Shown here one piece after another: positions 10,269 through 60,014 of a stretch of DNA of 64,000 nucleotides. Under the pieces are notes generated by a model. It was not told the origin of the DNA. It made no database searches and was given only the letters and a program-made list of their open reading frames with translations. The first letter of the stretch is position 1; each line of letters begins with the position of its first letter. The stretch is from positions 13,876-77,875 of the forward strand of contig CAKPMN010000002.1 of assembly GCA_934168005.1 (NCBI GenBank). The letters are read 5' to 3'. This DNA is from an uncultured Bacilli bacterium. GTDB taxonomy: Bacteria; Bacillota_I; Bacilli_A; RF39; UBA660. Made by a program: the position numbers and the translations under genes.

Positions 10269-10357
10269 GCCTGAGTGGCGAAATTGGTAGACGCACAGGA
10301 CTTAAAATCCTGCGGGAGTCAAATCCCGTGCCGGTTCAAGTCCGGCCTTAGGCACCA
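10269..10357 (+). tRNA. tRNA-Leu (anticodon TAA), long variable arm
   Basis: Acceptor GCCTGAG/CTTAGGC-A-CCA, anticodon loop CTTAAAA, T-loop GGTTCAAGTCC. Confidence 0.85.
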
Positions 10358-10366
10358 TAGAAAATT

Positions 10367-10390
10367 AACGGACTTTGTCCGTTTTTCTTT
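10367..10390 (+). terminator. Terminator hairpin AACGGAC-TTTG-TCCGTT plus T-tract after tRNA-Leu
   Basis: Stem-loop followed by TTTTTC. Confidence 0.5.
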
Positions 10391-10427
10391 TGCAAAAATA
10401 CTTTTAATAAAAAAAATAAAAAAACTC

Positions 10428-10456
10428 TTGCCAAACAAAACACAACATGTTATAAT
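10428..10456 (+). promoter_or_regulatory. Sigma-A promoter (TTGCCA-17-TATAAT) for the tRNA-Ser...Pro transcription unit
   Basis: Near-consensus -35/-10 with 17-bp spacer, about 30 nt upstream of tRNA-Ser. Confidence 0.55.
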
Positions 10457-10487
10457 TTGTTATGTAATTGCCACAACTGGTGATATT

Positions 10488-10578
10488 GGAGAAATACCCA
10501 AGTTCGGTTGAAGGGACCGGTCTTGAAAACCGGGAGGTCGGAAACGGCGCGGGGGTTCGAATCCCTCTTTCTCCGCCA
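10488..10578 (+). tRNA. tRNA-Ser (anticodon TGA), long variable arm
   Basis: GGAGAAATACCCAAG... anticodon loop CTTGAAA... T-loop GGTTCGAATCC ... CTCCGCCA. Confidence 0.85.
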
Positions 10579-10587
10579 TTTAAATAT

Positions 10588-10664
<77 letters not shown>

Positions 10665-10665
10665 T

Positions 10666-10742
10666 GGTTCGTTAGTCTAGAGGCCTATGACGTCTGCCTG
10701 TCACGCAGAAGACCACGGGTTCGAATCCCGTACGAACCGCCA
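10666..10742 (+). tRNA. tRNA-Asp (anticodon GTC)
   Basis: Acceptor GGTTCGT/ACGAACC-G-CCA, anticodon loop CTGTCAC, T-loop GGTTCGAATCC. Confidence 0.85.
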
Positions 10743-10750
10743 TTTATTTT

Positions 10751-10826
<76 letters not shown>

Positions 10827-10866
10827 TTTATTTTTGATTAATATTACAATAATTGGTTTGGCAATT

Positions 10867-10943
<77 letters not shown>

Positions 10944-10946
10944 TAT

Positions 10947-11023
10947 CGGGAAATGGCTCAACTTGGTAGAGCACTTGGTTTGGGACCAAGGGGTTGCAGG
11001 TTCAAATCCTGTTTTCCCGACCA
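10947..11023 (+). tRNA. tRNA-Pro (anticodon TGG)
   Basis: CGGGAAATGGCTCAACTTGGTAGAGC, anticodon loop TTTGGGA, ...TTTCCCGACCA. Confidence 0.85.
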
Positions 11024-11033
11024 TTTAGAATTT

Positions 11034-11057
11034 AACGGATATAATCCGTTTTTTTTA
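11034..11057 (+). terminator. Terminator hairpin AACGGAT-ATA-ATCCGTT plus T8 after tRNA-Pro
   Basis: Stem-loop plus TTTTTTTT. Stem sequence related to the hairpin after tRNA-Leu. Confidence 0.55.
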
Positions 11058-11099
11058 TTGCAAAATCAAGTATATTTGGGTAAAATAATAGTATATATT

Positions 11100-11175
11100 G
11101 TTTACATAGCTCAGTTGGAAGAGCATTTCCCTCCGAAGGAAAAGGTCATCAGTTCAAATCTGATTGTAAACACCA
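11100..11175 (+). tRNA. tRNA-Arg (anticodon CCG)
   Basis: GTTTACATAGCTCAGTTGGAAGAGC, anticodon loop CTCCGAA, acceptor TGTAAAC-A-CCA. Own TTGCAA/TAAAAT promoter upstream. Confidence 0.75.
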
Positions 11176-13563: not shown

Positions 13564-14211
13564 TCAATGCTTTTCTTTTTTTACAATATCAACAATATAA
13601 TCTATTAAAAATATCTTTTTCTTTTTAATACTAGAGACTTTAGCAAGTACTAAAGTTTTTTCTCTGTACTTTTTATTATACATTGAATTTTCTAGTAAAG
13701 AGCAAACAAATATCCCGTCATTAATAGAGCAATCCTCAATGCGTGCCCATAAAAGTTCACTCTTTTTACCGGTATTTAAAGTCAATTCAACATCGTCTAT
13801 ATAAGTTTCATGTCTAAATTCATCGATATAATCGACTTTTCTAGATTCATTTATTGCTTTCTTTTGATAATAAGAATCAAAATGTTTTTCTAATTGATCA
13901 GTATGTTCGATATTTCTAATTATTATCTCATCAACATTATTAACTTTGTATTTTAGTTTATTAGAAAAAACAATAGAACTCTTATTATAAATAATTTCAG
14001 GATCAAGAGAATATGATTCATTTTCCTTATTTATAAAACCAGCAATTTTAATTTTTAATCCCTCATTGTGATTTATATAACCATAACCAATTAAAATACC
14101 ATCTTCTATATTTATTTTAACTTTTTTACATATTTTTTTAATATCTTTTTTTTCTGTGAAAACAAGCCATTTTCTATCAAGATCTCTAAATTTCATCTTT
14201 CCTAAAACCAT
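13564..14211 (-). CDS. Hypothetical protein (215 aa), no recognised motif
   Basis: Intact ORF convergent with the NUDIX gene. Lys-rich. No identifiable domain by eye. Confidence 0.4.
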   Translation of the reverse strand: MVLGKMKFRDLDRKWLVFTEKKDIKKICKKVKINIEDGILIGYGYINHNEGLKIKIAGFINKENESYSLDPEIIYNKSSIVFSNKLKYKVNNVDEIIIRNIEHTDQLEKHFDSYYQKKAINESRKVDYIDEFRHETYIDDVELTLNTGKKSELLWARIEDCSINDGIFVCSLLENSMYNKKYREKTLVLAKVSSIKKKKIFLIDYIVDIVKKEKH

Positions 14212-16500: not shown

Positions 16501-18102
16501 ATGAGAGCAGATAAGATAACATTTAGTTATGGAACAGAACAAATATATGATAATGCAGAATTTTACTTAAATGAAAAAGAGAAGACTGGAATAGTAGGAG
16601 TAAATGGAGCCGGGAAAACAACTTTATTTAATGTACTATTAAAAAACATTGAATTAGATAGTGGCAAGATAACATGGGATGATAAAAAGAAAATAGGTTA
16701 TTTACCACAAGAAGTCACATACGAACAAGAAGAAACTGTCTTTGAATATTTATTAGAAGCAAGACCAATAAAAAAGCTAGAACAAGATCAAGTAAGAATC
16801 TATGAGAAGATAGCGCAAGATCCAAATAACAAAAGAAATTATAAAGAATTGGAGAAAATTGAGAATCTACTAAATTATTATGAACAATACAAAGCAGAAA
16901 ATGTATTATTCGAAATGATTGAAAATATGAAAATCGATTCAAACATGCTAGATATGAAAATGAAAGATTTATCAGGTGGTCAAAAGTCAAAGATCGCATT
17001 TTTACATCTTTTATATTCAAAACCAGATACTCTATTATTAGATGAACCCACAAATCATCTAGATAAAGATACCAGAGAATACATTACAAAGTATTTAAAA
17101 ATGTATAAAGGAATGATTTTAGTAATATCACATGATATAAAATTTCTAAATAGTATTGTTGATAATATATTATTTTTAGATAAAACGACTCATAAGGCAA
17201 AAGTATATAAAGGAGACTATACTTCATTCTTAAAACAAAGAGAAGAAGAAAAAAAGCAAAAAGAAAGAGAGATAGAAAAACAAGAGCAAACAGAAGAAAA
17301 ATTAAGAGAATTGGTATTAAAATATTCAAATTCATCTGGAAAAAGAAAACGAATGGCAGAATCAAGAGAAAAAGCATTAAAAAAATTAGAAGCAAATAAG
17401 ATCGAAAGAGATATAACCTATAAGACAGTTAAATTAAACTTAAAGCCAGAAAGAGAAATATCAAAAATACCAGTTAAAGTTAATAATATAGATTTTTCAT
17501 ATGAACAAGATAAGAAAATAATAAATAACTTGTCATTTACAATAGGTAAAAATGAAAGATTTTTAATAGTTGGAGAAAATGGAGTTGGTAAATCAACACT
17601 ATTAAAGTTATTGGTAGGTAAATTAAAACCAAATAATGGAAATATATGGTATGGATCAAAAACGGATATAGCATATTACGCCCAAGAGCAAGAAAACCTA
17701 GAACCAGGTAAAACAATTTTAGAAAATATAGACACAAAAGGATATTCAGAAAAAGAATTAAGAACATTACTTGGAAACTTCCTATTCTTTAAAGACGAAG
17801 TATTTAAAAAAGTTGAAGTATTATCTCCAGGTGAGAAGGCTAGAGTCTCATTAGCAAAAGTTTTATTAAAAAAAGCTAATTTAATTTTACTAGATGAGCC
17901 AACAAATCACCTAGATCCAGAAACACAAAGAATAATAGGAGAGAACTTTAAAAACTATGAAGGAACAATAATAATGGTCAGTCATAATCCTGATTTTGTA
18001 GAAAGTATAGGAATAGACAGAATGCTTATATTACCAAAAGGAAAAATAACAAATTATACAAAAGAAAGATTACTAGAAAATAGCAGTAAAAAAGATTTGT
18101 AA
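16501..18102 (+). CDS. ABC-F family ATPase (two tandem ABC domains with about 80-aa charged interdomain linker), ARE-like
   Basis: Two Walker A (GVNGAGKTT; GENGVGKST), two signatures (LSGGQKSK; LSPGEKARV), two Walker B. Long K/E-rich linker between the domains. Confidence 0.85.
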   Translation: MRADKITFSYGTEQIYDNAEFYLNEKEKTGIVGVNGAGKTTLFNVLLKNIELDSGKITWDDKKKIGYLPQEVTYEQEETVFEYLLEARPIKKLEQDQVRIYEKIAQDPNNKRNYKELEKIENLLNYYEQYKAENVLFEMIENMKIDSNMLDMKMKDLSGGQKSKIAFLHLLYSKPDTLLLDEPTNHLDKDTREYITKYLKMYKGMILVISHDIKFLNSIVDNILFLDKTTHKAKVYKGDYTSFLKQREEEKKQKEREIEKQEQTEEKLRELVLKYSNSSGKRKRMAESREKALKKLEANKIERDITYKTVKLNLKPEREISKIPVKVNNIDFSYEQDKKIINNLSFTIGKNERFLIVGENGVGKSTLLKLLVGKLKPNNGNIWYGSKTDIAYYAQEQENLEPGKTILENIDTKGYSEKELRTLLGNFLFFKDEVFKKVEVLSPGEKARVSLAKVLLKKANLILLDEPTNHLDPETQRIIGENFKNYEGTIIMVSHNPDFVESIGIDRMLILPKGKITNYTKERLLENSSKKDL

Positions 18103-18108
18103 AACTAA

Positions 18109-18756
18109 GTGATTTATAATATAATAAAAAACATTGGTGATGTTATGGAAGCAAAAGAATTAACAGAAGAAATTAAAACTTTACAAAAAGGAGATATTCT
18201 ATTTGTAATAGGAGAAAACAGTATAGGAAAGACAACTTTATTTAGCAAAGTAGATAAAAACATTATTTGTAAAGAATTAAATAAAAATACTGCTGTAAAA
18301 AATCTTATAAAAAATGATGAAATAATCAAAGAATTTAATATAGAAGATTTACTGGAAAGAAAAATTAATACTCTATCAACAGGAGAAAAGACACTAATAA
18401 CAATATTATCAAATCTAGAAAATGAGATTTTAATAGTCGATGACATATTGAAAAACTTAGATAGTAAAACAAAAGAAAAACTACTAAAGAAAATAAAAAG
18501 GTTAAGAAAAGATAAAATAACTATTTTTTTAACAACAACATCAGATGACATACTTTTTGGAAATAAAACATTGATAATGTCAAAAGAAAAGTATTTACTA
18601 CTAGATACAAAGAAAATATTAGAAGAAAAGAATTTTAAAGAAGCAAATATCACATTACCATTTGTAATAGATTTATCAAAGAAACTGTCCTATTATGGAT
18701 TAGTAAATAAAAATTATTATGAAATAGATAAGTTGGTGAATGACTTATGGAAATAA
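18109..18756 (+). CDS. ABC-ATPase-like protein with degenerate signature/Walker B (LSTGEK; ILIVDD); true start possibly the internal Met at about 18145
   Basis: Walker A GENSIGKTT intact. Signature LSTGEK instead of LSGGQ. No H-loop His recognisable. Confidence 0.5.
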   Translation: MIYNIIKNIGDVMEAKELTEEIKTLQKGDILFVIGENSIGKTTLFSKVDKNIICKELNKNTAVKNLIKNDEIIKEFNIEDLLERKINTLSTGEKTLITILSNLENEILIVDDILKNLDSKTKEKLLKKIKRLRKDKITIFLTTTSDDILFGNKTLIMSKEKYLLLDTKKILEEKNFKEANITLPFVIDLSKKLSYYGLVNKNYYEIDKLVNDLWK

Positions 18757-19577
18757 ATAATTTAAGCTATACATATAAAAATACTGATAAAGAAGTATTA
18801 AAAGATATTACATGTAAAATAAAACAAGGAGAAATAACATGTATAATAGGTAAAAACGGTAGTGGAAAAACAACTTTTTTAGAACTGTTAGCAAATTTAA
18901 GAATACCAACCGAAGGAGAAATTAAGTATCAAAAATATAGTATAAATAAAGATAGTAGTTTATTAGGACATGATTTTTGGTTTGAAGTATCATACTGTTC
19001 TATCAGCAATGATAATCTATTAAATACATCCATAAGAGACAATTTTATGTTGAGACTAAAGCAATTTAATTATAATGCATCAAAGATAAAAGAAAGAGTA
19101 ATAAATTCATTAAAAATGTTAGAATTGGATGAATCATATTTAGAAAAGAATGTAAAAGACTTATCACATGGAGAAAAACTAAAAATTCAAATAGCATATT
19201 CGTTACTTCAAAATCCTAAAGTACTTTTAATTAACAATCCAACAGTATCACTAGATGAAAAAGGAACAAAAAATTTAATAAGAATTATTAAATTATTAAA
19301 AAGAAGATACAATAAAACAATTGTTATCGCAACAAATGATATGGAATTTGTAAATAAAATAGCAGACAGAGTAATTCTATTAGATAAAACAAAAATAGTA
19401 TTAGATGATGGTAAATACGAAGTATTTAAGCAAGAAGATAAAATAAAAAAATTAAACATTCTTCCTCCAAAAACAATTGCTTTTTCAAATAAAGTATTAA
19501 AAGAAAAGAACATAAAAATAGGATATAGAGATGAAATAAATGATTTAATAAAAGATATTTATAGATATGTTAAGTAG
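18747..19577 (+). CDS. ABC-ATPase-like protein with degenerate catalytic motifs (LSHGEK; Walker B LLINNPT; H-loop His to Asn)
   Basis: Walker A GKNGSGKTT intact. Walker B acidic pair replaced by NN. Overlaps the previous ORF by 10 nt. Confidence 0.55.
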   Translation: MEINNLSYTYKNTDKEVLKDITCKIKQGEITCIIGKNGSGKTTFLELLANLRIPTEGEIKYQKYSINKDSSLLGHDFWFEVSYCSISNDNLLNTSIRDNFMLRLKQFNYNASKIKERVINSLKMLELDESYLEKNVKDLSHGEKLKIQIAYSLLQNPKVLLINNPTVSLDEKGTKNLIRIIKLLKRRYNKTIVIATNDMEFVNKIADRVILLDKTKIVLDDGKYEVFKQEDKIKKLNILPPKTIAFSNKVLKEKNIKIGYRDEINDLIKDIYRYVK

Positions 19578-19584
19578 GTGAACT

Positions 19585-20316
19585 ATGAGATATTTAATGA
19601 CTTTTTCATATGATGGAACTAACTTTAGTGGATATCAAATTCAAAACAATAAAAGGACAATAGAAGAAGAAATAGAAAAACAACTAACAAAAATAAATCA
19701 TAATGAAAATATAAGAATTATCGCATCAGGAAGAACAGATGCACATGTACATGCGTTGAGTCAAAAGGCCCATTTTGATATGGATAATATATCAGAATAT
19801 GATCTGAAGTTAAAATTAAATAAAATGCTTCCTCAAGACATATACATAAAAAATATAGAAAAAGTAGATAAAAACTTTCATGCTAGATATAACTCTAAGG
19901 AGAAAGAATATATTTATAAAATCAATTTAGGTGAATATAATCCTTTAGAAGTTAATTATGTGTATCAATATAATAAAGATTTGAACATAAAAAATATGAT
20001 TGAAGTATCAGAAATATTGAAAGGCACACATGATTTTACTTCATTCACAGCTTCATCAGGAAAAAAGGAAAATATGGTAAGAACAATAACAAATATAACA
20101 TTTAATATGGAAAATAATGTATTAATAATATCATTTAAAGGTAATGGTTTTTTAAGATACCAAGTAAGAAATATGGTAAGTATATTAGTAGAAGCAGGAG
20201 AAAATAAAAAAACAAAAGAAGAAGTTAAAGAAATATTAGATTCAAAAGATAGAAAAAATGCTTCAAAAACATTTTCTCCAGTTGGTCTGTACCTAAAAGA
20301 AGTTAAATATTTGTAA
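19585..20316 (+). CDS. truA: tRNA pseudouridine(38-40) synthase TruA
   Basis: SGRTDAHVHAL catalytic motif. Conserved position upstream of rplM-rpsI. Confidence 0.9.
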   Translation: MRYLMTFSYDGTNFSGYQIQNNKRTIEEEIEKQLTKINHNENIRIIASGRTDAHVHALSQKAHFDMDNISEYDLKLKLNKMLPQDIYIKNIEKVDKNFHARYNSKEKEYIYKINLGEYNPLEVNYVYQYNKDLNIKNMIEVSEILKGTHDFTSFTASSGKKENMVRTITNITFNMENNVLIISFKGNGFLRYQVRNMVSILVEAGENKKTKEEVKEILDSKDRKNASKTFSPVGLYLKEVKYL

Positions 20317-20455
20317 ATAAATTCAAGAATAAGTTATTTTTCTTGACTTTTTGTATTCTTTTTAATATAATTTTAATTGGTACATTTTTAATTATCCCAT
20401 ATATAGTTATTGCTGGGAACAATAACTAGAATCTATTTTAGAAGGGAAATGAGTT

Positions 20456-33856: not shown

Positions 33857-36800
33857 ATGAAAAAGGGTAAAAAAGGATTTGTAGTAAGTGCGGTATTGTA
33901 CCCATTACTAGTATTGTTTCTAGCGATAATCATGGGATTACTTTCCATGACAGATACAAGAAAAAGAATATTAGATAAAATGAAGTTAGAAATAACAGAT
34001 AATATATTTGATGATGCAGCATGCTCATGCGATACAATACTAGCAAAATTAAACTATATTATCGCAAATGGAACTGGAGGATCTGGTGGAGACACAGGAT
34101 CATATGCATATAACAAATTAACACTAAATGTAAAAACATATGAAGCATATAGTGACTTTCCGGTAGTAGGAAACATAATAGGAGATATCGCAGTATTGTC
34201 AACAACCCCAATAAAAAACTATTATGTATCAACAAGTGTACCAAAAAGTCCACAAGAAGGAACAGTATGGATAGTACAAGATAATACAAGTAATTATTAT
34301 GTAACATCAGATTGGAATAGGATTGGTATAAGTTATGTAATGCAGTATGAGAATAGTAAATGGGTATTAAAAAAATCATATGTTTATAACGGTGAATCAT
34401 GGACAATGTTATACTATGTTAATTTAAAGAATGGATATGTAGATTTAACAAAATCAGATATAAATGCTGAGATAACAAAAACATATGACTATACAGGAGA
34501 ATACCAAACATTTAAAGCAGTATTTTCAGGATACTACAAGATAGAGTTATGGGGAGCTCAAGGTGGAAGCTATTCATCTAGTGTAGTTGGTGGATTAGGA
34601 TCATATACGTCTGGAGAAATATACTTAGATGCTGGTGAAATTTTATATGTATATATAGGTGGACAAGGAAAAAATCCATCAGGACTAGGTCCTGATTATA
34701 CAGGAGGAACCGGTGGCTGGAATGGTGGCGGTGACGGAATAAGAAATGCTGGTAACAATGCAAACAAAGCAGCAGAAGGTGGCGGTGGAGCAACAGATAT
34801 AAGACTTATTGGAACATCAGATAAGAAAAATTGGGATGAGTTTGATTCGTTAAAAACTAGAATTATGGTTGCGGCAGGAGGCTCAGGATCAGCATATTAT
34901 GTAGATGCAGCAACAAATGGAACAGCCGGAGGCGGATTAAATGGATACGAAGGAATGTGTGATGGAGGTGCATGTTCAACAACACTTGAATCAAAATATG
35001 GTGGAATAGGTGCAACACAAACATTAGCTGGGTATAGTCCATATTCAAAGATATCAACAATGGGTGGCTTTGGATATGCTGGTAGTGGTGCAAAATCAAA
35101 TTATGATGCTACTGGTGGAGGCGGTGGTTACTACGGAGGCGGAGGAGCTTTTGCCGGTGGTAATGGTAGAACAATCGGAGGATCAGGCTCAAGTTATATT
35201 TCAGGATTTAATGGTTGTAATTCTATAAAAGAAGAAAGCAGTGCAGATAATATAATACATACAGGAAGTGCATATCACTATAGTGGCAAATATTTTTTAA
35301 ATTCTATAATGGTTGACGGAAAAGGAAGTTCATGGGGAGAAGCATATGCAACAGCAACCAAAAATCAACCAACTTATGATGGTAAGTCAACTCAAATAGG
35401 AAATAGTGGAAATGGCTATGCAAAAATTACACTAGAGACAGTTGAGGTAATATCTAAATCTGATATCGAGAAAAAACAGACAGAAGTAGAAAATAAATGG
35501 ATATACAATTATTCAGGAACTTATCAAATATTTACAGCTCCAACAAGTGGATACTATAAAGCTGAATTGTGGGGAGCCCAAGGAGGAAGCTATTCTTCTA
35601 GTGTGATAGGAGGATATGGTTCATATACAACAGGTGATATATATCTAAATAAAAACGAAAAATTGTATATATATGTAGGCGGACAAGGAACAAATCCGCT
35701 AGGTCTAGGTACTGACTATTCCGGAGGAACCGGAGGTTGGAATGGTGGTGGAGATGGACTTAGAAATTCAGGCAACACTGCAAACAAAGCAGCAGAAGGT
35801 GGCGGTGGAGCAACAGATATAAGACTTGTATCTACATCAAGTCTAGGTAATTGGCTTGATTTTGAAAGTTTGAAATCACGAATCATGGTTGCAGCTGGAG
35901 GCTCTGGTTCAGCATATTATGCAGATGCAGCAACAAATGGATCTGCCGGAGGTGGAATAAATGGATATGATGGAATGTGTGATGGTGGAGCTTGTTCGGC
36001 ATCATCCGAATTAAATTACGGTGGAATAGGTGCTACACAAGCCCTAGCAGGATATAGTCCAGTGTCAAAAACTAGTACAATAGGAGGATTTGGATACGCC
36101 GGAAGTGGAACTCCATCAAATTATGACGCTACTGGCGGAGGCGGTGGTTACTATGGAGGTGGCGGAGCATTTGCTGGAGGAAATGGTAGAACTGTTGGTA
36201 GTACAGGTTCAAGTTATATATCAGGATTTAATGGCTGCAATTCAATAGCAGAAGAGAGTACATCTACAAATATTTTACACACAGGGAGTGCATATCACTA
36301 TAATGGATACTATTTTAAATCTGGCGTTATGATAGATGGAAAAGGTCAATCTTGGAACGAGGCTTATGCAAAAACATCACCATTACAACCAAATTATGAC
36401 AATTCTGGTTCTATGACAGGAAATAGTGGACATGGATATGCTAAAATAACTAAAATTTCGACAGAAGAAAAATCTTCAGATGAAATTAGTGGCTATGAAG
36501 AAAAAAATAATAGTATATATGTATATAACTATTCAAGTACATATCAGACTTTCATAGCCAGTAAATCAGGATATTATAAGATAGAACTATGGGGAGCTCA
36601 AGGTGGAAATTATAATACGAATGTAATTGGTGGAAAAGGTGCATATACATATGGAAAAATTTACTTGGCAAAAGGTCAAAAACTATACGTATATGTAGGA
36701 GGTCAAGGAGAAAATCCAAGAGGTTTAGGAACAAATTATTCCGGAGGAAGCGGTGGCTGGAATGGCGGTGGAGATGGTATGAGAAATTCAGGAAACTCAA

Positions 36801-38506
36801 ACAATAAATTTGCCGGAGGCGGAGGTGGCGCTACGGATATACGTTTGGAAGTAACGCCAAGTTTAAGCAGTTGGTCAGATTTTAATAGTATAAAATCAAG
36901 AATTATGACTGCATCAGGTGGATCCGGAGCGGCTTATTATGCAGAAGCAGCAACAAATGGAACAGCCGGTGGCGGATTAACTGGGTATGAAGGAATGTGT
37001 GACGGTGGATCATGTACATATTCAAGCGATCTTAGATATAGTGGTCTTGGCGCAACACAAACATTAGCTGGTTATAGTCAAGTTTCACAAACCGCGACAA
37101 ATGGCGGCTTTGGTTATGGGGGAAGTGGTTCCCAATCAAACTACGATGCTACCGGAGGTGGTAGTGGTTACTATGGAGGCGGAGGAGCATTTTCTGGTAG
37201 TAATGGTAGAACAACCGGAGGATCTGGTTCAAGTTATATTTCAGGATTTACAGGATGTAATTCTATAGCAGGCGAATCAACTGCATCAAACCTTTTACAT
37301 ACAGGAAGTGCATATCACTATAGTGGATATTATTTTACTGATGCTATTATGATAGACGGAAAAGGTTATAAGTGGCAATCAGGAAAAGCATTATCTGCTA
37401 TTAACCAGCCAACATACGATGGAACTAGTACAATGGTTGGAAATAGTGGAAATGGATATGCTAGAATAGAATTTATCGAGGCTGCTAATGTTTCAGAAGA
37501 AACATTAAATAATGATAAATTGAATGCAGAAAAAAATTGGAATTTTACTTATTCAAAAAGTTACCAAGAATTTACAGTTCCAAAAACAGGAACATATAAA
37601 ATAGAACTATGGGGAGCCCAAGGAGGAAGTTATACAACATCAGTTATAGGTGGATTAGGATCATACACATCAGGTCAAATTTCTCTTACTAAGGGAACAA
37701 AATTATATGTATATGTTGGAAGTCAAGGAACAAATCCATTAGGTTTAGGTGATACTTATTCTGGAGGAACCGGTGGCTGGAATGGCGGAGGCGATGGTCT
37801 AAGAAATACAAATACAAGCAATGACAAAGCAGCAAATGGCGGAGGTGGTGCAACTGATGTTAGAACGATAAAGACATCATCCCTTTCAACATGGAATACA
37901 AGAAATTCTATAATTTCGAGAATTATGGTCGCAGCCGGAGGATCTGGCTCTGCATATTATGCAGATGCAGCAACAAATGGCTCTGCCGGAGGTGGATTAA
38001 AAGGGTACAATGGATATTGTGATGCAACAGAATGTACTACATCTGGTGGAAGTGGAGGAACACAAATTGCTGCAGGTTCAGCATCTTACAATGCAACAGC
38101 TACATCATTAACAAAAGGAGATTTTGGCTATGGAGGAAATGGTGCAAAATCTAATTACAATGCAACCGGAGGCGGAAGTGGTTGGTATGGTGGAGGTGGA
38201 GCATACTCAACTGGAAATGGTAGAACAACTGGAGGATCTGGATCAAGTTATATTTCAGGATTTGCAGGATGTATAGGTGTAAATTCATCAGGTAATCCAC
38301 TCGTAACAAAGTATTCAAAATTAGAAGATTCAATTTCAAATACAGGATATAAGTTTACAAATTCCATAATGATAGATGGAAAAGGATATTCATGGAATCA
38401 GACATCTGCAGTATCTGTCGTTAAACAACCAACTCCGGATGGTACATCAACTCAAACAGGTCAAAGTGGAAACGGTTATGCCAAGATAACATACCTAGGA
38501 GCATAA
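33857..38506 (+). CDS. Membrane-anchored giant glycine-rich repeat protein (1549 aa): N-terminal TM/signal anchor, about 200-aa unique region, then four 340-aa Gly-rich repeats
   Basis: Single uninterrupted ORF with AGGGAGG RBS. Each repeat carries YYKIELWGAQGG, GGTGGWNGGGDG, AAEGGGGATDIRL, RIMVAAGGSGSAYY, CDGGACS, ATGGGGGYYGGGGAF, GNSGNGYAKIT. Confidence 0.7.
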   Translation: MKKGKKGFVVSAVLYPLLVLFLAIIMGLLSMTDTRKRILDKMKLEITDNIFDDAACSCDTILAKLNYIIANGTGGSGGDTGSYAYNKLTLNVKTYEAYSDFPVVGNIIGDIAVLSTTPIKNYYVSTSVPKSPQEGTVWIVQDNTSNYYVTSDWNRIGISYVMQYENSKWVLKKSYVYNGESWTMLYYVNLKNGYVDLTKSDINAEITKTYDYTGEYQTFKAVFSGYYKIELWGAQGGSYSSSVVGGLGSYTSGEIYLDAGEILYVYIGGQGKNPSGLGPDYTGGTGGWNGGGDGIRNAGNNANKAAEGGGGATDIRLIGTSDKKNWDEFDSLKTRIMVAAGGSGSAYYVDAATNGTAGGGLNGYEGMCDGGACSTTLESKYGGIGATQTLAGYSPYSKISTMGGFGYAGSGAKSNYDATGGGGGYYGGGGAFAGGNGRTIGGSGSSYISGFNGCNSIKEESSADNIIHTGSAYHYSGKYFLNSIMVDGKGSSWGEAYATATKNQPTYDGKSTQIGNSGNGYAKITLETVEVISKSDIEKKQTEVENKWIYNYSGTYQIFTAPTSGYYKAELWGAQGGSYSSSVIGGYGSYTTGDIYLNKNEKLYIYVGGQGTNPLGLGTDYSGGTGGWNGGGDGLRNSGNTANKAAEGGGGATDIRLVSTSSLGNWLDFESLKSRIMVAAGGSGSAYYADAATNGSAGGGINGYDGMCDGGACSASSELNYGGIGATQALAGYSPVSKTSTIGGFGYAGSGTPSNYDATGGGGGYYGGGGAFAGGNGRTVGSTGSSYISGFNGCNSIAEESTSTNILHTGSAYHYNGYYFKSGVMIDGKGQSWNEAYAKTSPLQPNYDNSGSMTGNSGHGYAKITKISTEEKSSDEISGYEEKNNSIYVYNYSSTYQTFIASKSGYYKIELWGAQGGNYNTNVIGGKGAYTYGKIYLAKGQKLYVYVGGQGENPRGLGTNYSGGSGGWNGGGDGMRNSGNSNNKFAGGGGGATDIRLEVTPSLSSWSDFNSIKSRIMTASGGSGAAYYAEAATNGTAGGGLTGYEGMCDGGSCTYSSDLRYSGLGATQTLAGYSQVSQTATNGGFGYGGSGSQSNYDATGGGSGYYGGGGAFSGSNGRTTGGSGSSYISGFTGCNSIAGESTASNLLHTGSAYHYSGYYFTDAIMIDGKGYKWQSGKALSAINQPTYDGTSTMVGNSGNGYARIEFIEAANVSEETLNNDKLNAEKNWNFTYSKSYQEFTVPKTGTYKIELWGAQGGSYTTSVIGGLGSYTSGQISLTKGTKLYVYVGSQGTNPLGLGDTYSGGTGGWNGGGDGLRNTNTSNDKAANGGGGATDVRTIKTSSLSTWNTRNSIISRIMVAAGGSGSAYYADAATNGSAGGGLKGYNGYCDATECTTSGGSGGTQIAAGSASYNATATSLTKGDFGYGGNGAKSNYNATGGGSGWYGGGGAYSTGNGRTTGGSGSSYISGFAGCIGVNSSGNPLVTKYSKLEDSISNTGYKFTNSIMIDGKGYSWNQTSAVSVVKQPTPDGTSTQTGQSGNGYAKITYLGA
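34450..38506 (+). repeat. Four in-frame tandem repeats with exact 1020-bp period inside the Gly-rich gene
   Basis: Identical 47-mer caaacaaagcagcagaaggtggcggtggagcaacagatataagactt at 34761 and 35781. Homologous blocks at 36801 and 37821. tggggagc(t/c)caagg at 34550, 35570, 36590 and 37610. Confidence 0.85.
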
Positions 38507-44498: not shown

Positions 44499-44611
44499 AT
44501 GTAAGGATTTTCTTTTGAAAATCCTTGCTTTTTTTCAAAAAGATTGTTATACTATGAAAGTAATTAAATTTCTATGGCCGAATTAGGTCATGGCGGAAGG
44601 AGACTAAAAGT

Positions 44612-56995: not shown

Positions 56996-57706
56996 ATGAA
57001 GTTTGTAGTGTATGATGACCATAAGGAATTTAGAGATACAATAGAAAGTATCATTAAAAGTTTAAACTATGAAGATTCAATAATAAAACTATATAGTAAA
57101 TACGATGAAAAACTAAAAGAAGAAATAAAAAATGATCAAAAGAAAATTTATATTCTAGATATAGAAGTGCCAAATAGTATATCAGGTTTAGAGTTAGCTA
57201 GAAAAATAAGAATGACAGACTGGAAAAGTGTTATCATAATGGTAACATCACATAATGAATTAGGTTATGAAGCATTAAAATCACAAATAATGTTATTAGA
57301 TTTTATATCAAAATTTAGTCCGACATGGAAGACAAATTTAAAAAACACAATAAAGAAAGCTATGAATAAAACTAAAGAGATACCAGTCTTAATTTTAGAA
57401 ACACCAAACATGATATATAGAATTTATACAGATGATATTTTATATATCTTAAGAGATCAAGTAGAAAGAAAATGTAAAATTAAAACAATAAATGATGAAA
57501 TATATTTTCCAAAGAGTATTAAAGAGTTTAGTACTTTATTAGATGATAGATTTTTCTTAAGTCATAGAAGCTGTTATATAAATTTAAAACAAGTTAAGAA
57601 AGTAGATTTTAAAAAATTGAGAATATATTTTAATAATGGTGAATTTATAGATTACTTATCAAGAGATAAAAAGAAGGAATTGAAAGAGTATGTTAGAAAT
57701 AATTAG
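56996..57706 (+). CDS. agrA: LytTR-family response regulator (AgrA-like)
   Basis: N-terminal receiver (ILDIEVP) and C-terminal LytTR DNA-binding domain (LSHRSCYINLKQV). Confidence 0.8.
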   Translation: MKFVVYDDHKEFRDTIESIIKSLNYEDSIIKLYSKYDEKLKEEIKNDQKKIYILDIEVPNSISGLELARKIRMTDWKSVIIMVTSHNELGYEALKSQIMLLDFISKFSPTWKTNLKNTIKKAMNKTKEIPVLILETPNMIYRIYTDDILYILRDQVERKCKIKTINDEIYFPKSIKEFSTLLDDRFFLSHRSCYINLKQVKKVDFKKLRIYFNNGEFIDYLSRDKKKELKEYVRNN

Positions 57707-58976
57707 TCATTTTTTATTAGCGATAGTAACTTATTTTATGAATTGCTATATGTATTGCAAGATAAATAAAAAGAAATTTCAAATAACACCAAAATTAATA
57801 ATATTTGTAGTATTTGTCGCTATGATAAATACTTATAGTCGCCAACACTATAATTCTACAATAGACCTAGTTATTAGTAATTTAGAATTAGTTTTTTTAC
57901 TAAAATATATTTATAATGAGTCAATAATAAAAGTAATAGTTTCAGTTTTGATTATTTTAATTTTATACACATTAGGTGAATTAGTATATGCTCTAATAAC
58001 AATATATATTTTACAAATAGAAAAATTAGCTTTAACAGAAACAATATCAGGACATTGTATAACTAACCTGTCTATTTTAGCTATAGTATTGTTACTTTCT
58101 AAAAACAAAAAGATAATGGCAATATCCAATAAGATTATCAATTGGCAAAAGGATAATAAATATATAAATACTACATTATTAGTTGTTTTAGCTTTTATTA
58201 CTTTAGCGGCTTTATTATATCCAATATCTACAAATTCAAATTCTCCAAGTAGTACATTTTTATTTGTATTATTCATATTATGTACAATAATATTTGTAAC
58301 TGGATTCTTTAATGAAAAGTCAGAAAATAATAAACTTAATGAAAATTATGATACATTAATAGATTATTTAAAAGTATATGAAAAAGAAATAAATGAGAAG
58401 TCAAAATTACAACATGAGTTCAAAAATCAATTGATATTAATAAAAGAGATGGATACATCTAAAAAGGTAAAAAACTATATATCTAATTTACTTGGAGAAG
58501 ATGAAGAAACTCAAAACAAGTTATTATTATCTTCATTAAAAGATGTTCCAAATGGTGGGCTAAAGGGTCTTATATATTATAAGTTAAATCATTTATCAGA
58601 AGATGTTGAATTACATATTCATGTTGGAAGTGATATTGATCAGAAAGTTTGGGATAAGATAAATTTGAATGACGCAAGTAAGATAGTTGGTATATTACTA
58701 GATAATGCGATTGATGCGATAAATAAAGAAGATAAAAAATATTTAGTTTTAGATTTAGACGAGTGTGATGATAATCTTATATTTACTGTATCAAATTCGT
58801 GCACTAAAAAAATAGATTTTGATAATTTAGATAAAGAAGGCTATTCAACCAAAGGTAAGAATCATGGATATGGATTACCTCTTTTGAACGATATAATAAG
58901 AAAAAATAAGAATGTAAAAATTAAAAGAGAATTAAATGGAATAATGTTTTCTACAAAAATATATATGAAGATATAA
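57690..58976 (+). CDS. agrC: AgrC-like membrane sensor histidine kinase (HPK10 subfamily)
   Basis: Six or seven N-terminal TM helices. H-box HEFKNQL. GHKL ATPase motifs NAIDA, GYGLPL. Confidence 0.8.
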   Translation: MLEIISHFLLAIVTYFMNCYMYCKINKKKFQITPKLIIFVVFVAMINTYSRQHYNSTIDLVISNLELVFLLKYIYNESIIKVIVSVLIILILYTLGELVYALITIYILQIEKLALTETISGHCITNLSILAIVLLLSKNKKIMAISNKIINWQKDNKYINTTLLVVLAFITLAALLYPISTNSNSPSSTFLFVLFILCTIIFVTGFFNEKSENNKLNENYDTLIDYLKVYEKEINEKSKLQHEFKNQLILIKEMDTSKKVKNYISNLLGEDEETQNKLLLSSLKDVPNGGLKGLIYYKLNHLSEDVELHIHVGSDIDQKVWDKINLNDASKIVGILLDNAIDAINKEDKKYLVLDLDECDDNLIFTVSNSCTKKIDFDNLDKEGYSTKGKNHGYGLPLLNDIIRKNKNVKIKRELNGIMFSTKIYMKI

Positions 58977-59204: not shown

Positions 59205-59810
59205 TTAAAAGTTTAAACCATATGTCTTATAGTTATTGTAACTATGATTAAACATATGATAAGTAATAGGAAGTATTAAAATAACTTCAATAATCATTCC
59301 AAACAAAATCAAATTAGATAAGACATAATCTTTCATGAAAAGTATTATTAGCGATAGCAGTAGAGCACTAATAAAAGCTTTTCTTTTTTTTAGTAAACGT
59401 TTTTCCAATCTAATTATAGGAGCCTTTTTTGTATCTGCGGGTGCATATATGAATATACATATTAGACAGATACAAATAAGAAGAAATTTTAAAATTATTG
59501 ATATTTTGATGATTTTCCCAATATAAGAAGAAAAAAGAAACAAAGCAGAAGAAGCAATCAAACAACTAAAGCTATTAGAAGCATGCATTCCACATGCATA
59601 TTTTCTTATGAGGTTAAATGCTATTAAAACAATTATGAGCTCTTTAAATATTCCAAGCAATAATGCTATTGGAAATATAACAATAGTTTTTTGTATTGTT
59701 AAGTAAACTCCTTCCAATCCGTATCGATATTCATCAAGTTCAACATCAGTAATATTTGGATTATCATTTTTAATGACCCCAAGAGCCATTGATAAAAATT
59801 TCAACTTCAT
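59205..59810 (-). CDS. agrB: AgrB accessory gene regulator protein B (AIP-processing membrane peptidase); probable start at internal Met MKLKFLSM
   Basis: Polytopic membrane protein with AgrB-family conserved region (KYACGMHASNSFSCLIAS). Confidence 0.75.
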   Translation of the reverse strand: MKLKFLSMALGVIKNDNPNITDVELDEYRYGLEGVYLTIQKTIVIFPIALLLGIFKELIIVLIAFNLIRKYACGMHASNSFSCLIASSALFLFSSYIGKIIKISIILKFLLICICLICIFIYAPADTKKAPIIRLEKRLLKKRKAFISALLLSLIILFMKDYVLSNLILFGMIIEVILILPITYHMFNHSYNNYKTYGLNF

Positions 59811-60014
59811 CCTATCACCAAAAACATAGTAACACAAAAAATTTTTATAATTACGATATCGGTCTCTAATGTAAAAAAGCAAGTTTCAATTGAAAAAACA
59901 AATAAATAAAATTAAAAAAATATACATTTAAGACATAAATATTAACGTTTCGAACAAATCCTATTGTTAACTCAAAATAAAATTGGTATATTTATTAAAT
60001 CAAGGAGGTACACC

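Follow-up and report, generated by a model that had tools for sequence, protein, structure and literature searches.

Why would a bacterium keep a pair of energy-coupling factor (ECF) ATPase genes that appear to have lost both their catalytic residues and their membrane partner? The question is raised by a 64 kb stretch of DNA from an uncultured Bacilli bacterium, referred to as the window herein, in which two overlapping open reading frames (ORFs) occupy positions 18109-19577 of the + strand directly in front of truA. ORF1 (18109-18756) is a shortened, degenerate ecfA1 orthologue and ORF2 (18747-19577) a full-length, catalytically degenerate ecfA2 orthologue; all locus features below are on the + strand. 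Firmicutes take up vitamins mainly through ECF transporters, which are also drug targets, and to our knowledge their ATPases are thought to exist solely for driving EcfT and the S-components. We lean modestly toward the reading that ORF1 and ORF2 encode a non-hydrolyzing EcfA1/EcfA2 heterodimer, left after a clean deletion of ecfT and kept for a role that does not depend on EcfT.

An earlier note on this DNA, made from the letters alone, had placed two ATP-binding cassette (ABC) ATPase-like genes at the ecfA1/ecfA2 position before truA. Its coordinates were exact, and both synteny and the best hidden Markov model (HMM) matches support orthology. In two related loci (L009 and L010; L numbers designate related loci throughout), whose EcfA2 is 46% identical to ORF2, a helix-turn-helix (HTH) gene is followed by ecfA1 (269 aa), ecfA2 (280 aa), a CbiQ/EcfT gene (250 aa), and truA, with rplM and rpsI beyond. 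These loci share with the window the 10-nt overlap between the ATPase genes as well as the divergent HTH gene upstream, which identified ORF1 as the orthologue of ecfA1 and ORF2 as that of ecfA2 and implied a clean excision of ecfT. Synteny with L009/L010 and 66 other loci shows ORF1 to be the first gene of an ecfA1-ecfA2-(ecfT)-truA operon, overlapping ecfA2. The best NCBIfam match of ORF1 was ECF_ATPase_1 (TIGR04520), at 63.1 bits against a cut-off of 315 and over model positions 118-269 only, and that of ORF2 was ECF_ATPase_2 (TIGR04521), at 184.3 bits against a cut-off of 330; the scores thus amount to 20 and 56% of the family cut-offs, respectively. ORF2 passed the gathering threshold of PF00005 (88 bits, threshold 25), and ORF1 reached 28.7 bits as a whole protein, yet no single stretch of it passed. 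Similarly, the AlphaFold2 (AF2) model of ORF1 (pLDDT 85) found ECF/CbiO ATPases as its best Foldseek matches (TMq 0.69-0.71), as a truncated copy, and the model of ORF2 (pLDDT 90.9) aligned at full length over ∼280 columns with 4mki_B, 8bms_B, and 4huq_A (TM 0.87-0.91; 0.91 to 4mki_B), passing the full ECF-ATPase fold test with its C-terminal helices included. Taken together, ORF1 and ORF2 are, judged from position and sequence, the orthologues of ecfA1 and ecfA2; they pass on orthology and fold, but as functional EcfA1/EcfA2 they fall short of the HMM cut-offs and lack the full catalytic set, the Q-helix, and a T partner.

The reading frames themselves are not products of chance. The region has a G+C content of 22%, which makes 0.11 the probability that a random codon is a stop, and the chance of an open frame at the local base composition is 2e-11 for 215 codons and 2e-14 for 276. 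ORF1 measures 215 aa from GTG at 18109; the likelier start is the ATG at 18145 with GGTGA just upstream, in which case the product is probably 203 aa. ORF2 measures 276 aa.

To locate the catalytic motifs, we aligned ORF2 to 120 database homologues and both ORFs to the syntenic canonical pair of L009. All motifs that had been quoted for the pair were present at the expected coordinates. In ORF2, the Walker A motif GKNGSGKTT (18849-18875) is intact, as it is throughout the ecfT-less clade of the window, and the A-loop Tyr is retained. The former Q-loop and Q-helix read CSISNDNL (18996-19019) where relatives have FQFPEEQF; at the Q-helix position itself, ISNDNL stands against SPEEQF/FPEEQF in relatives and departs from the motif X-P-D/E-X-Q-φ. 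The signature LSHGEK (19161-19178) has the LSxGE form typical of EcfA2 across the wider clade, ecfT-containing loci included. In Walker B (LLINNPT, 19224-19244; LDEPT in relatives) the D-E pair is replaced by N-N, and in the H-loop (IATNDM, 19326-19343) His is replaced by Asn, giving TND versus SHD in relatives. ORF2 thus no longer has the Q-loop Gln, the Q-helix for docking EcfT, the catalytic Glu, or the H-loop His, and this strain lacks the Walker B Asp as well. We also considered that the catalytic residues might be present but merely offset, an outcome that would have counted against the earlier claim; both alignments show true substitution and this was rejected.

ORF1 is more heavily reduced. 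Its Walker A motif GENSIGKTT (18211-18237) conforms to GxxxxGK[ST], with a Lys that is nearly invariant in EcfA1 relatives. Its signature reads LSTGEK (18373-18390), where ecfT-containing relatives have LSGGEK or LSGGQK. Upon alignment with the canonical pair, Walker B (ILIVDD, 18427-18444) showed Asp in place of the catalytic Glu, and the H-loop region (FLTTTSDD, 18526-18549) contained no His. About 55 aa are missing between Walker A and the signature, comprising the β-subdomain, Q-loop, Q-helix, and part of the helical subdomain. Hence, among the elements of the EcfA1 catalytic set (Walker A, Q-loop, Walker B D-E, H-loop His), Walker A alone is present. An ABC site is composed of Walker A, Walker B, and H-loop from one subunit and the signature from the other. 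Since the sites are built across subunits and residues have been lost from both ORFs, both composite ATP sites lack catalytic residues and are predicted to be non-catalytic, as the earlier note had proposed in calling neither ORF catalytically canonical. The Q-helix motif is specific to ECF ATPases and provides the groove for a conserved Arg in the coupling helices of EcfT (PMC6828968; PMC4245157). The coupling element had been named as a check on the proposal, and our alignments show that ORF2 has lost the EcfT-docking Q-helix and that ORF1 has a deletion of this region.

Within the window's clade, Walker A was identical, or changed from T to S only, across five lineages with a divergence of up to 48%. 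The Walker B Asp of ORF2 is polymorphic within the species: L001-L004 carry D-N, and the window, L094, and L095 carry N-N. We found the D-N allele (P0011) on 14 contigs and the window's N-N allele (P0243) on 5-6 contigs. A sequencing error as the source of N-N was rejected because the allele recurs on contigs from independent samples.

A membrane partner is missing locally as well. ORF2 stops 7 nt before truA (spacer 19578-19584), at the place where relatives hold an ecfT of ∼750 nt and related genomes read ecfA1-ecfA2-ecfT-truA. An HMM built from the EcfT sequences of 66 relatives gave no match below E=0.2 over the 64 kb window, which revealed neither a remnant nor a relocated ecfT, and it found no ecfT in the flanks of the ecfT-less loci (≤10 kb around the matches). 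The same HMM rescued divergent ecfT genes in L048 and L063. A metagenome scan with the EcfT alignment for solitary ecfT in relatives gave no confirmed match. We found no S-component among the window's membrane proteins, whose multi-pass ORFs are MntP, Bax1-I, AgrB, VanZ, MscL, and a P-type ATPase, and none in the flanks of any ecfT-less locus. The statements that ecfT is absent and that no S-component follows therefore hold at the locus and in the whole window, and no T component (PF02361, CbiQ/EcfT) is encoded beside the ATPases.

We then asked how selection acts on the two genes. The source organism occurs in human-gut metagenomes, for instance in Hadza samples, and both frames are free of stops in six other conspecific contigs (L001-L004, L094, L095), with a pN/pS of 0.1-0.37 among L001-L004 that derives from few changes. 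A sister species (L005-L007, 68-69% amino acid identity) has the layout ABC-F, 213 aa, 276 aa, truA; ORF2 is 276 aa both in the window and in L005 and aligns without gaps. Two more ecfT-less lineages were found at 62% (L011) and 52% (L008). The degenerate state is common to the window, L005, L011, and L008, and therefore the entire divergence among them postdates degeneration. Among three ecfT-less species, the ratio of nonsynonymous to synonymous substitution rates (dN/dS, Nei-Gojobori) was 0.24 for ORF1 and 0.30-0.33 for ORF2, at a dS of ∼0.65-0.9 that is near saturation (Fisher p<1e-9). Neighboring genes gave 0.03-0.21, making ORF1 and ORF2 the fastest-evolving genes of the neighborhood. 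In ecfT-containing pairs, dN/dS of EcfA2 was ∼0.08 (16 pairs, at about 0.03-0.19 with the single exception of L077/L080, at 0.36) and EcfA2 usually evolved more slowly than TruA; in ecfT-less pairs EcfA2 evolved faster than TruA, with a dN/dS of 0.27-0.54. For instance, the ecfT-less loci L072 and L082 are 83% identical in TruA, 59% in EcfA2, and 46% in EcfA1. Purifying selection on ORF1 and ORF2 is thus relaxed ∼3-5-fold relative to ecfT-containing relatives and is not lost. The marks of a pseudogene (stops, frameshifts, a dN/dS near 1) are missing, with no stop or frameshift in the conspecific contigs or in three other species. This strengthens the earlier argument that intact frames speak against simple decay.

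The remaining constraint is concentrated at the C termini. In ORF1, conservation peaks in the C-terminal helices (LPFVIDLSKKLSYYGLV...LVNDLWK, 18655-18753), with a dN/dS of 0.10 for the domain compared with 0.65 for the N terminus, the least constrained region. Seventeen EcfA1 relatives agree without exception at P184, F185, L189, L193, Y196, V210, W214, and K215. The AF2 model of ORF1 places predicted helices at 185-195 and 206-214, with LPF...LS.KL.YY...LWK invariant, as expected for putative A-A′ dimerization helices. In solved ECF modules, the C-terminal helices form the A-A′ four-helix bundle (PMC4245157). Similarly, the tail of ORF2 (GYRDEINDLIKDIYRYVK, 19521-19574) is by alignment the most conserved EcfA2 segment of the clade: it is identical in the window, L005, and L008, differs by one residue in L011 and L009, and the motif NDLIKD[IV]Y occurs in 109 of the 120 database homologues. 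Codons inside the tail vary synonymously, so the constraint lies at the protein level, which argues against an RNA element; an Rfam search of the operon for such an element under the conserved 3′ ends gave no match. The invariance of LWK in ORF1 and MEI in ORF2 is due in part to dual coding, since the two genes overlap in the 10 nt TTATGGAAATAA (18747-18756), read as L-W-K-stop and M-E-I. The same 10-nt overlap is present in canonical loci, such as L009 (1382-1391).

Is this one clade's oddity? A scan of species-representative genomes yielded 80 loci, all from uncultured 'Bacilli/Mollicutes/Tenericutes' metagenome-assembled genomes (MAGs) and at best 48% identical; the window's species and its 52-68% relatives lie outside this set. 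Between ecfA2 and truA, ecfT was present in 70 loci, absent from nine, and a fragment in L015. We compared motifs over 84 loci (the 80-locus set with the window, L005, L008, L009, and L011), giving 13 ecfT-less and 71 ecfT-containing cases without phylogenetic correction. The EcfA1 catalytic Glu was kept in 0/12 ecfT-less and 55/71 ecfT-containing loci, the EcfA2 catalytic Glu in 6/13 and 69/71, the EcfA2 H-loop His in 2/13 and 55/71, the EcfA1 Q-helix Pro in 1/12 and 55/71, and the first Gly of the EcfA1 signature in 1/12 and 54/71. Across these loci, loss of motifs tracks the absence of ecfT. Furthermore, the same region of EcfA1 was hit by independent deletions of different sizes in separate ecfT-less lineages.

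A second survey used TruA as bait on metagenome contigs and returned ∼67 informative loci. A multi-pass transmembrane ORF lay between ecfA2 and truA in 47 of these, and 18 had the ecfT-less order ecfA1-ecfA2-truA. The ATPase genes were also missing in one lineage only, L112/L114 (35% G+C), where truA stands in a different context. On a neighbor-joining tree of TruA (147 taxa, 32 ecfT-less), Fitch parsimony required 13 changes (12-17 in bootstrap replicates; 29 for shuffled states). This implied that ecfT was lost many times with the ATPase pair kept. In many ecfT-less lineages, even the EcfA2 P-loop is gone, as in GKNYENLIN or GNHLEDFIE. The most extreme relic pair, upstream of truA in L092 (89-1305) and L093 (753-1708), encodes an EcfA1-like protein of 200 aa and an EcfA2-like protein of 207 aa that both lack Walker A and have no Pfam match; the two loci are 56% identical, with a dN/dS of 0.22-0.25. 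All decayed forms retain the overlap of the ATPase genes, the tight truA junction, the RecA-core strands, and the C-terminal helices. The C-terminal motifs, LPF..LS.KL..Y.L...LW[KN] in EcfA1 and D.IKDIY in EcfA2, are both kept in the TruA-fished ecfT-less loci.

The surveys also turned up several states that differ from that of the window. L113 (1911-3998) and L132 (1914-3998) encode a full-length EcfA1 with D-D, a 227-aa EcfA2 without a P-loop, and a ∼198-aa ORF with five transmembrane segments, followed by truA. This last ORF sits in the ecfT position and barely matches the EcfT HMM, and the type recurs in L129, L130, L133, L144-146, L167, L168, and L173; in these loci a whole 'dead' module seems to be retained. 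In every ecfT-containing relative among L012-L091, the EcfA2 signature is LSxGE with a third residue that is never Gly. EcfA1 of ecfT-containing relatives often has D-D or Asn for the H-loop His, and some ecfT-containing EcfA2 have Gln, Arg, or Lys in place of this His. Before the loss of ecfT, the ECF module apparently already combined a degenerate ATP site with a consensus one. Lastly, a single MAG (JAEEJY01) holds two different complete ecfA1-ecfA2-ecfT-truA loci, L044 and L055, owing either to a true duplication or to mixed binning; a genome may thus carry a second ECF module at another site.

These observations suggest a course of events. From an ancestral ecfA1-ecfA2-ecfT-truA operon, a clean deletion of ecfT would have left ORF1 and ORF2 behind. 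Conservation in both proteins is highest in the C-terminal helices, from which we infer that the products still heterodimerize through the four-helix bundle. Given that both proteins strictly retain Walker A and ORF2 also the A-loop Tyr, the heterodimer of the window's clade may still bind nucleotide without hydrolyzing it, a state that we liken to the E-to-Q locked dimer of nucleotide-binding domains (NBDs). Such a heterodimer would act in a soluble role that does not need EcfT, and this role was probably already present in the ancestor beside transport. The recurrence of an ecfT-less, dead pair in many related lineages suggests that the pair does something other than power transport. More tentatively, and with slightly less than even confidence, we propose that EcfA1/EcfA2 of this gut clade of uncultured Bacilli have a second, EcfT-free function that resides in the heterodimer and its lineage-specific, highly conserved C-terminal helices, and that this function alone preserved the pair while ecfT was lost independently about a dozen times, in some lineages even once both P-loops had gone. 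Translationally coupled truA is the one genomic neighbor that the pair always has; this invariant coupling may point to a connection with TruA or with tRNA modification, which received no support from the tests made here.

Several points weigh against an EcfT-independent role. No partner or activity was identified for the pair. The absence of ecfT applies to the 64 kb window and the locus flanks, and ecfT or a complete second ecfAAT operon may sit elsewhere. The relaxed selection and the shrinkage seen in other lineages (EcfA1 from 269 to 200 aa, EcfA2 from 280 to ∼205 aa) also fit slow reductive decay, and the dN/dS values carry the near-saturated dS given above. Some ecfT-less lineages clearly do without nucleotide binding, and therefore ATP sensing cannot be the universal function. 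Even within the window's species, the Mg-coordinating position of Walker B varies between D and N, which shows that constraint on Mg-ATP geometry is weak. The number of independent losses comes from a single-gene neighbor-joining tree, which leaves the exact figure soft. Lastly, the EcfA2 tail peptide served as bait for L012-L091, so that tail conservation in them is partly by construction; we discounted it as ascertainment and relied on the TruA-fished loci, which are free of this bias.

The alternative that survives best, although we regard it as unlikely, is that the frames are maintained without any function of their proteins. Translation through ORF1 and ORF2 would be needed for ribosomes to reach truA, the pair would be a slowly shrinking relic, and selection would only remove stops and keep the products soluble, dimerized, and unaggregated. 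The compactness of the operon, with gaps of 6, -10, and 7 nt, is what this predicts, and truA lies within a few nt of the preceding ORF or overlaps it in ecfT-containing and ecfT-less loci alike. The 3-5-fold relaxation, the shrinking sizes, the loss of each functional motif in some lineage, and the Walker B polymorphism would follow as well. If coupling to truA were all that mattered, though, it is difficult to see why ecfT was excised cleanly about a dozen times, a sign that precise deletions arise easily, and yet the ATPase genes stayed in the ecfT-less lineages sampled without bias (bar L112/L114). Specific C-terminal motifs, beyond mere hydrophobicity, persist across very deep divergence, the C-terminal domain of ORF1 is held at a dN/dS of 0.10, and Walker A is strictly conserved in the window's clade.

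Quite unlikely, in our estimate, is the alternative that a transporter persists, with ecfT or another T component and S-components encoded elsewhere and ORF1/ORF2 working in an ECF module, perhaps with little or no ATP turnover. The ecfT search covered the window and the locus flanks, which leaves room for this, and in some ecfT-less loci (L052, L042/L102) EcfA2 is still near-canonical, its D-E, Q-loop, and Q-helix being retained; L113 and L132 moreover keep their shrunken T-like membrane ORF beside an EcfA2 without a P-loop. However, the Q-helix and Q-loop by which EcfT would dock are lost in ORF2 and deleted in ORF1, and the catalytic Glu and H-loop His are gone from both ATP sites. The covered sequence contains no EcfT or S-component, and motif loss correlates with the absence of ecfT.

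A ribosome- or translation-associated ABC protein, acting with TruA or with the ABC-F protein encoded upstream, is very unlikely. Location is what speaks for it: the pair stands beside an ABC-F gene, truA, rplM, and rpsI, with truA as its sole constant neighbor. This, however, is simply the ancestral position of the ecf operon in Bacilli (PMC8046335). The ABC-F gene (16501-18102) lies 6 nt upstream of ORF1, apparently in a common operon, and passes the NCBIfam cut-off for 'ribosomal protection-like ABC-F' (NF000355, 431 versus 380 bits). Its presence was correctly recognized in the earlier note, but it is no anomaly, being found 5′ of ecfA1 in the ecfT-containing L012, L016, and L045 and not in L008 or L009; it is lineage-typical context outside the ECF relic. 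That it is missing from the ecfT-less L008 and present in ecfT-containing relatives argues against a joint role. ORF1 and ORF2 each hold a single cassette and no PF12848 (ABC_tran_Xtn) linker, in contrast to the tandem cassettes and linker of the neighbor at 16501-18102. The ribosome-associated role suggested in the earlier note thus has nothing pointing to it. Least probable of all are recent pseudogenes that have not yet acquired a stop: HMM scores far under the family cut-offs and the fastest evolution in the neighborhood would fit them, but the data contradict this reading, as the divergence among the window, L005, and L011 (dS ∼0.65-0.9) is all post-degeneration and shows no stop or frameshift at an expected stop frequency of 0.11 per codon, dN/dS is well below 1, and the same state is found in many species.

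Downstream, truA (19585-20316; TIGR00071, 202.6 bits) is tightly coupled to ORF2 and is followed by rplM and rpsI. The 140-nt spacer between truA and rplM contains a near-consensus promoter-like site (TTGACT-17-TATAAT, 11/12; 20343-20371), which suggests that rplM-rpsI are transcribed independently of ecfA-truA. The promoter and terminator scan as a whole was uninformative in this AT-rich DNA, with 36 sites against 36.7 expected, no richer than chance. Elsewhere in the window, eight tRNA genes cluster at 10269-11175, and a conserved 215-aa ORF without a Pfam match (13564-14211, - strand) lies between a NUDIX gene and bipA, at the same place in L001-L008. A 1549-aa ORF at 33857-38506 has one N-terminal transmembrane segment and lies in a stretch with a clearly higher G+C content, 0.37-0.39 compared with ∼0.26 elsewhere; it could encode a surface protein or have been acquired horizontally. 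A match to the L31-Firmicutes ribosomal-protein leader is found at 44572-44602 (36.1 bits, gathering threshold 33.3), and an agr-like pair consists of AgrB (59205-59882, - strand) adjoining a GHKL histidine kinase with five transmembrane segments (57690-58976).

How does the pair compare with known systems? It is like canonical group II EcfA1/EcfA2 (4huq, 5d3m, 7nnt, 4mki; TIGR04520/TIGR04521) in synteny, best HMM, fold (TM 0.91 for ORF2), the 10-nt overlap, and the C-terminal helices, and unlike them in having no adjacent EcfT, catalytic Glu, H-loop His, or Q-loop/Q-helix and an ORF1 that is ∼55 aa shorter. Heterodimeric ABC transporters with one degenerate site (TM287/288, BmrCD, TAP1/2, and CFTR; reviewed in PMC7756269) show the same kinds of change, namely Walker B Glu to Asp or Asn, no His in the H-loop, and a signature that departs from the canonical one. 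They differ from our pair, which is degenerate at both sites, with neither a transmembrane partner nor a consensus site to drive the cycle. The pair least resembles a transporter motor and most resembles a doubly degenerate version of the ABC-exporter 'degenerate site' without the membrane partner. Plant ABCI11/NAP14 likewise has an ECF/CbiO-type NBD in which the Q-helix motif is not conserved, and its authors argue that the protein cannot form the T-docking groove (PMC6828968). It differs in keeping its catalytic motifs and in being a eukaryotic plastid protein, not a relic at the ecf operon position. In an Alicyclobacillaceae species, the whole ecfA1A2T module was deleted from the conserved Bacilli ecf-truA-rplM-rpsI operon (PMC8046335); ECF function was lost there as well, but the three genes went together, whereas here ecfT alone was lost, repeatedly, with the ATPase pair retained. 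Our literature search found no paper describing ecfT-less or catalytically dead EcfA pairs. Pseudoenzymes such as pseudokinases and pseudo-ATPases keep the fold and sometimes the nucleotide pocket, lose catalysis, and are selected for binding or scaffolding; ORF1 and ORF2 differ from them in having no known binding partner or regulatory output.

If our reading is true, a dead EcfA1/EcfA2 pair that outlives repeated loss of EcfT would point to an unrecognized second role of the heterodimer, and the pair would count as an ABC-type pseudoenzyme from bacteria. Decay has gone to different lengths in different lineages, a natural experiment that shows which parts of an ABC ATPase serve transport only. 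Such genes bear the label 'energy-coupling factor transporter ATP-binding protein' (for instance, the JGI name for P0015), and with dead pairs annotated in this way, metabolic reconstructions of uncultured gut bacteria may wrongly infer a working ECF route of vitamin uptake.

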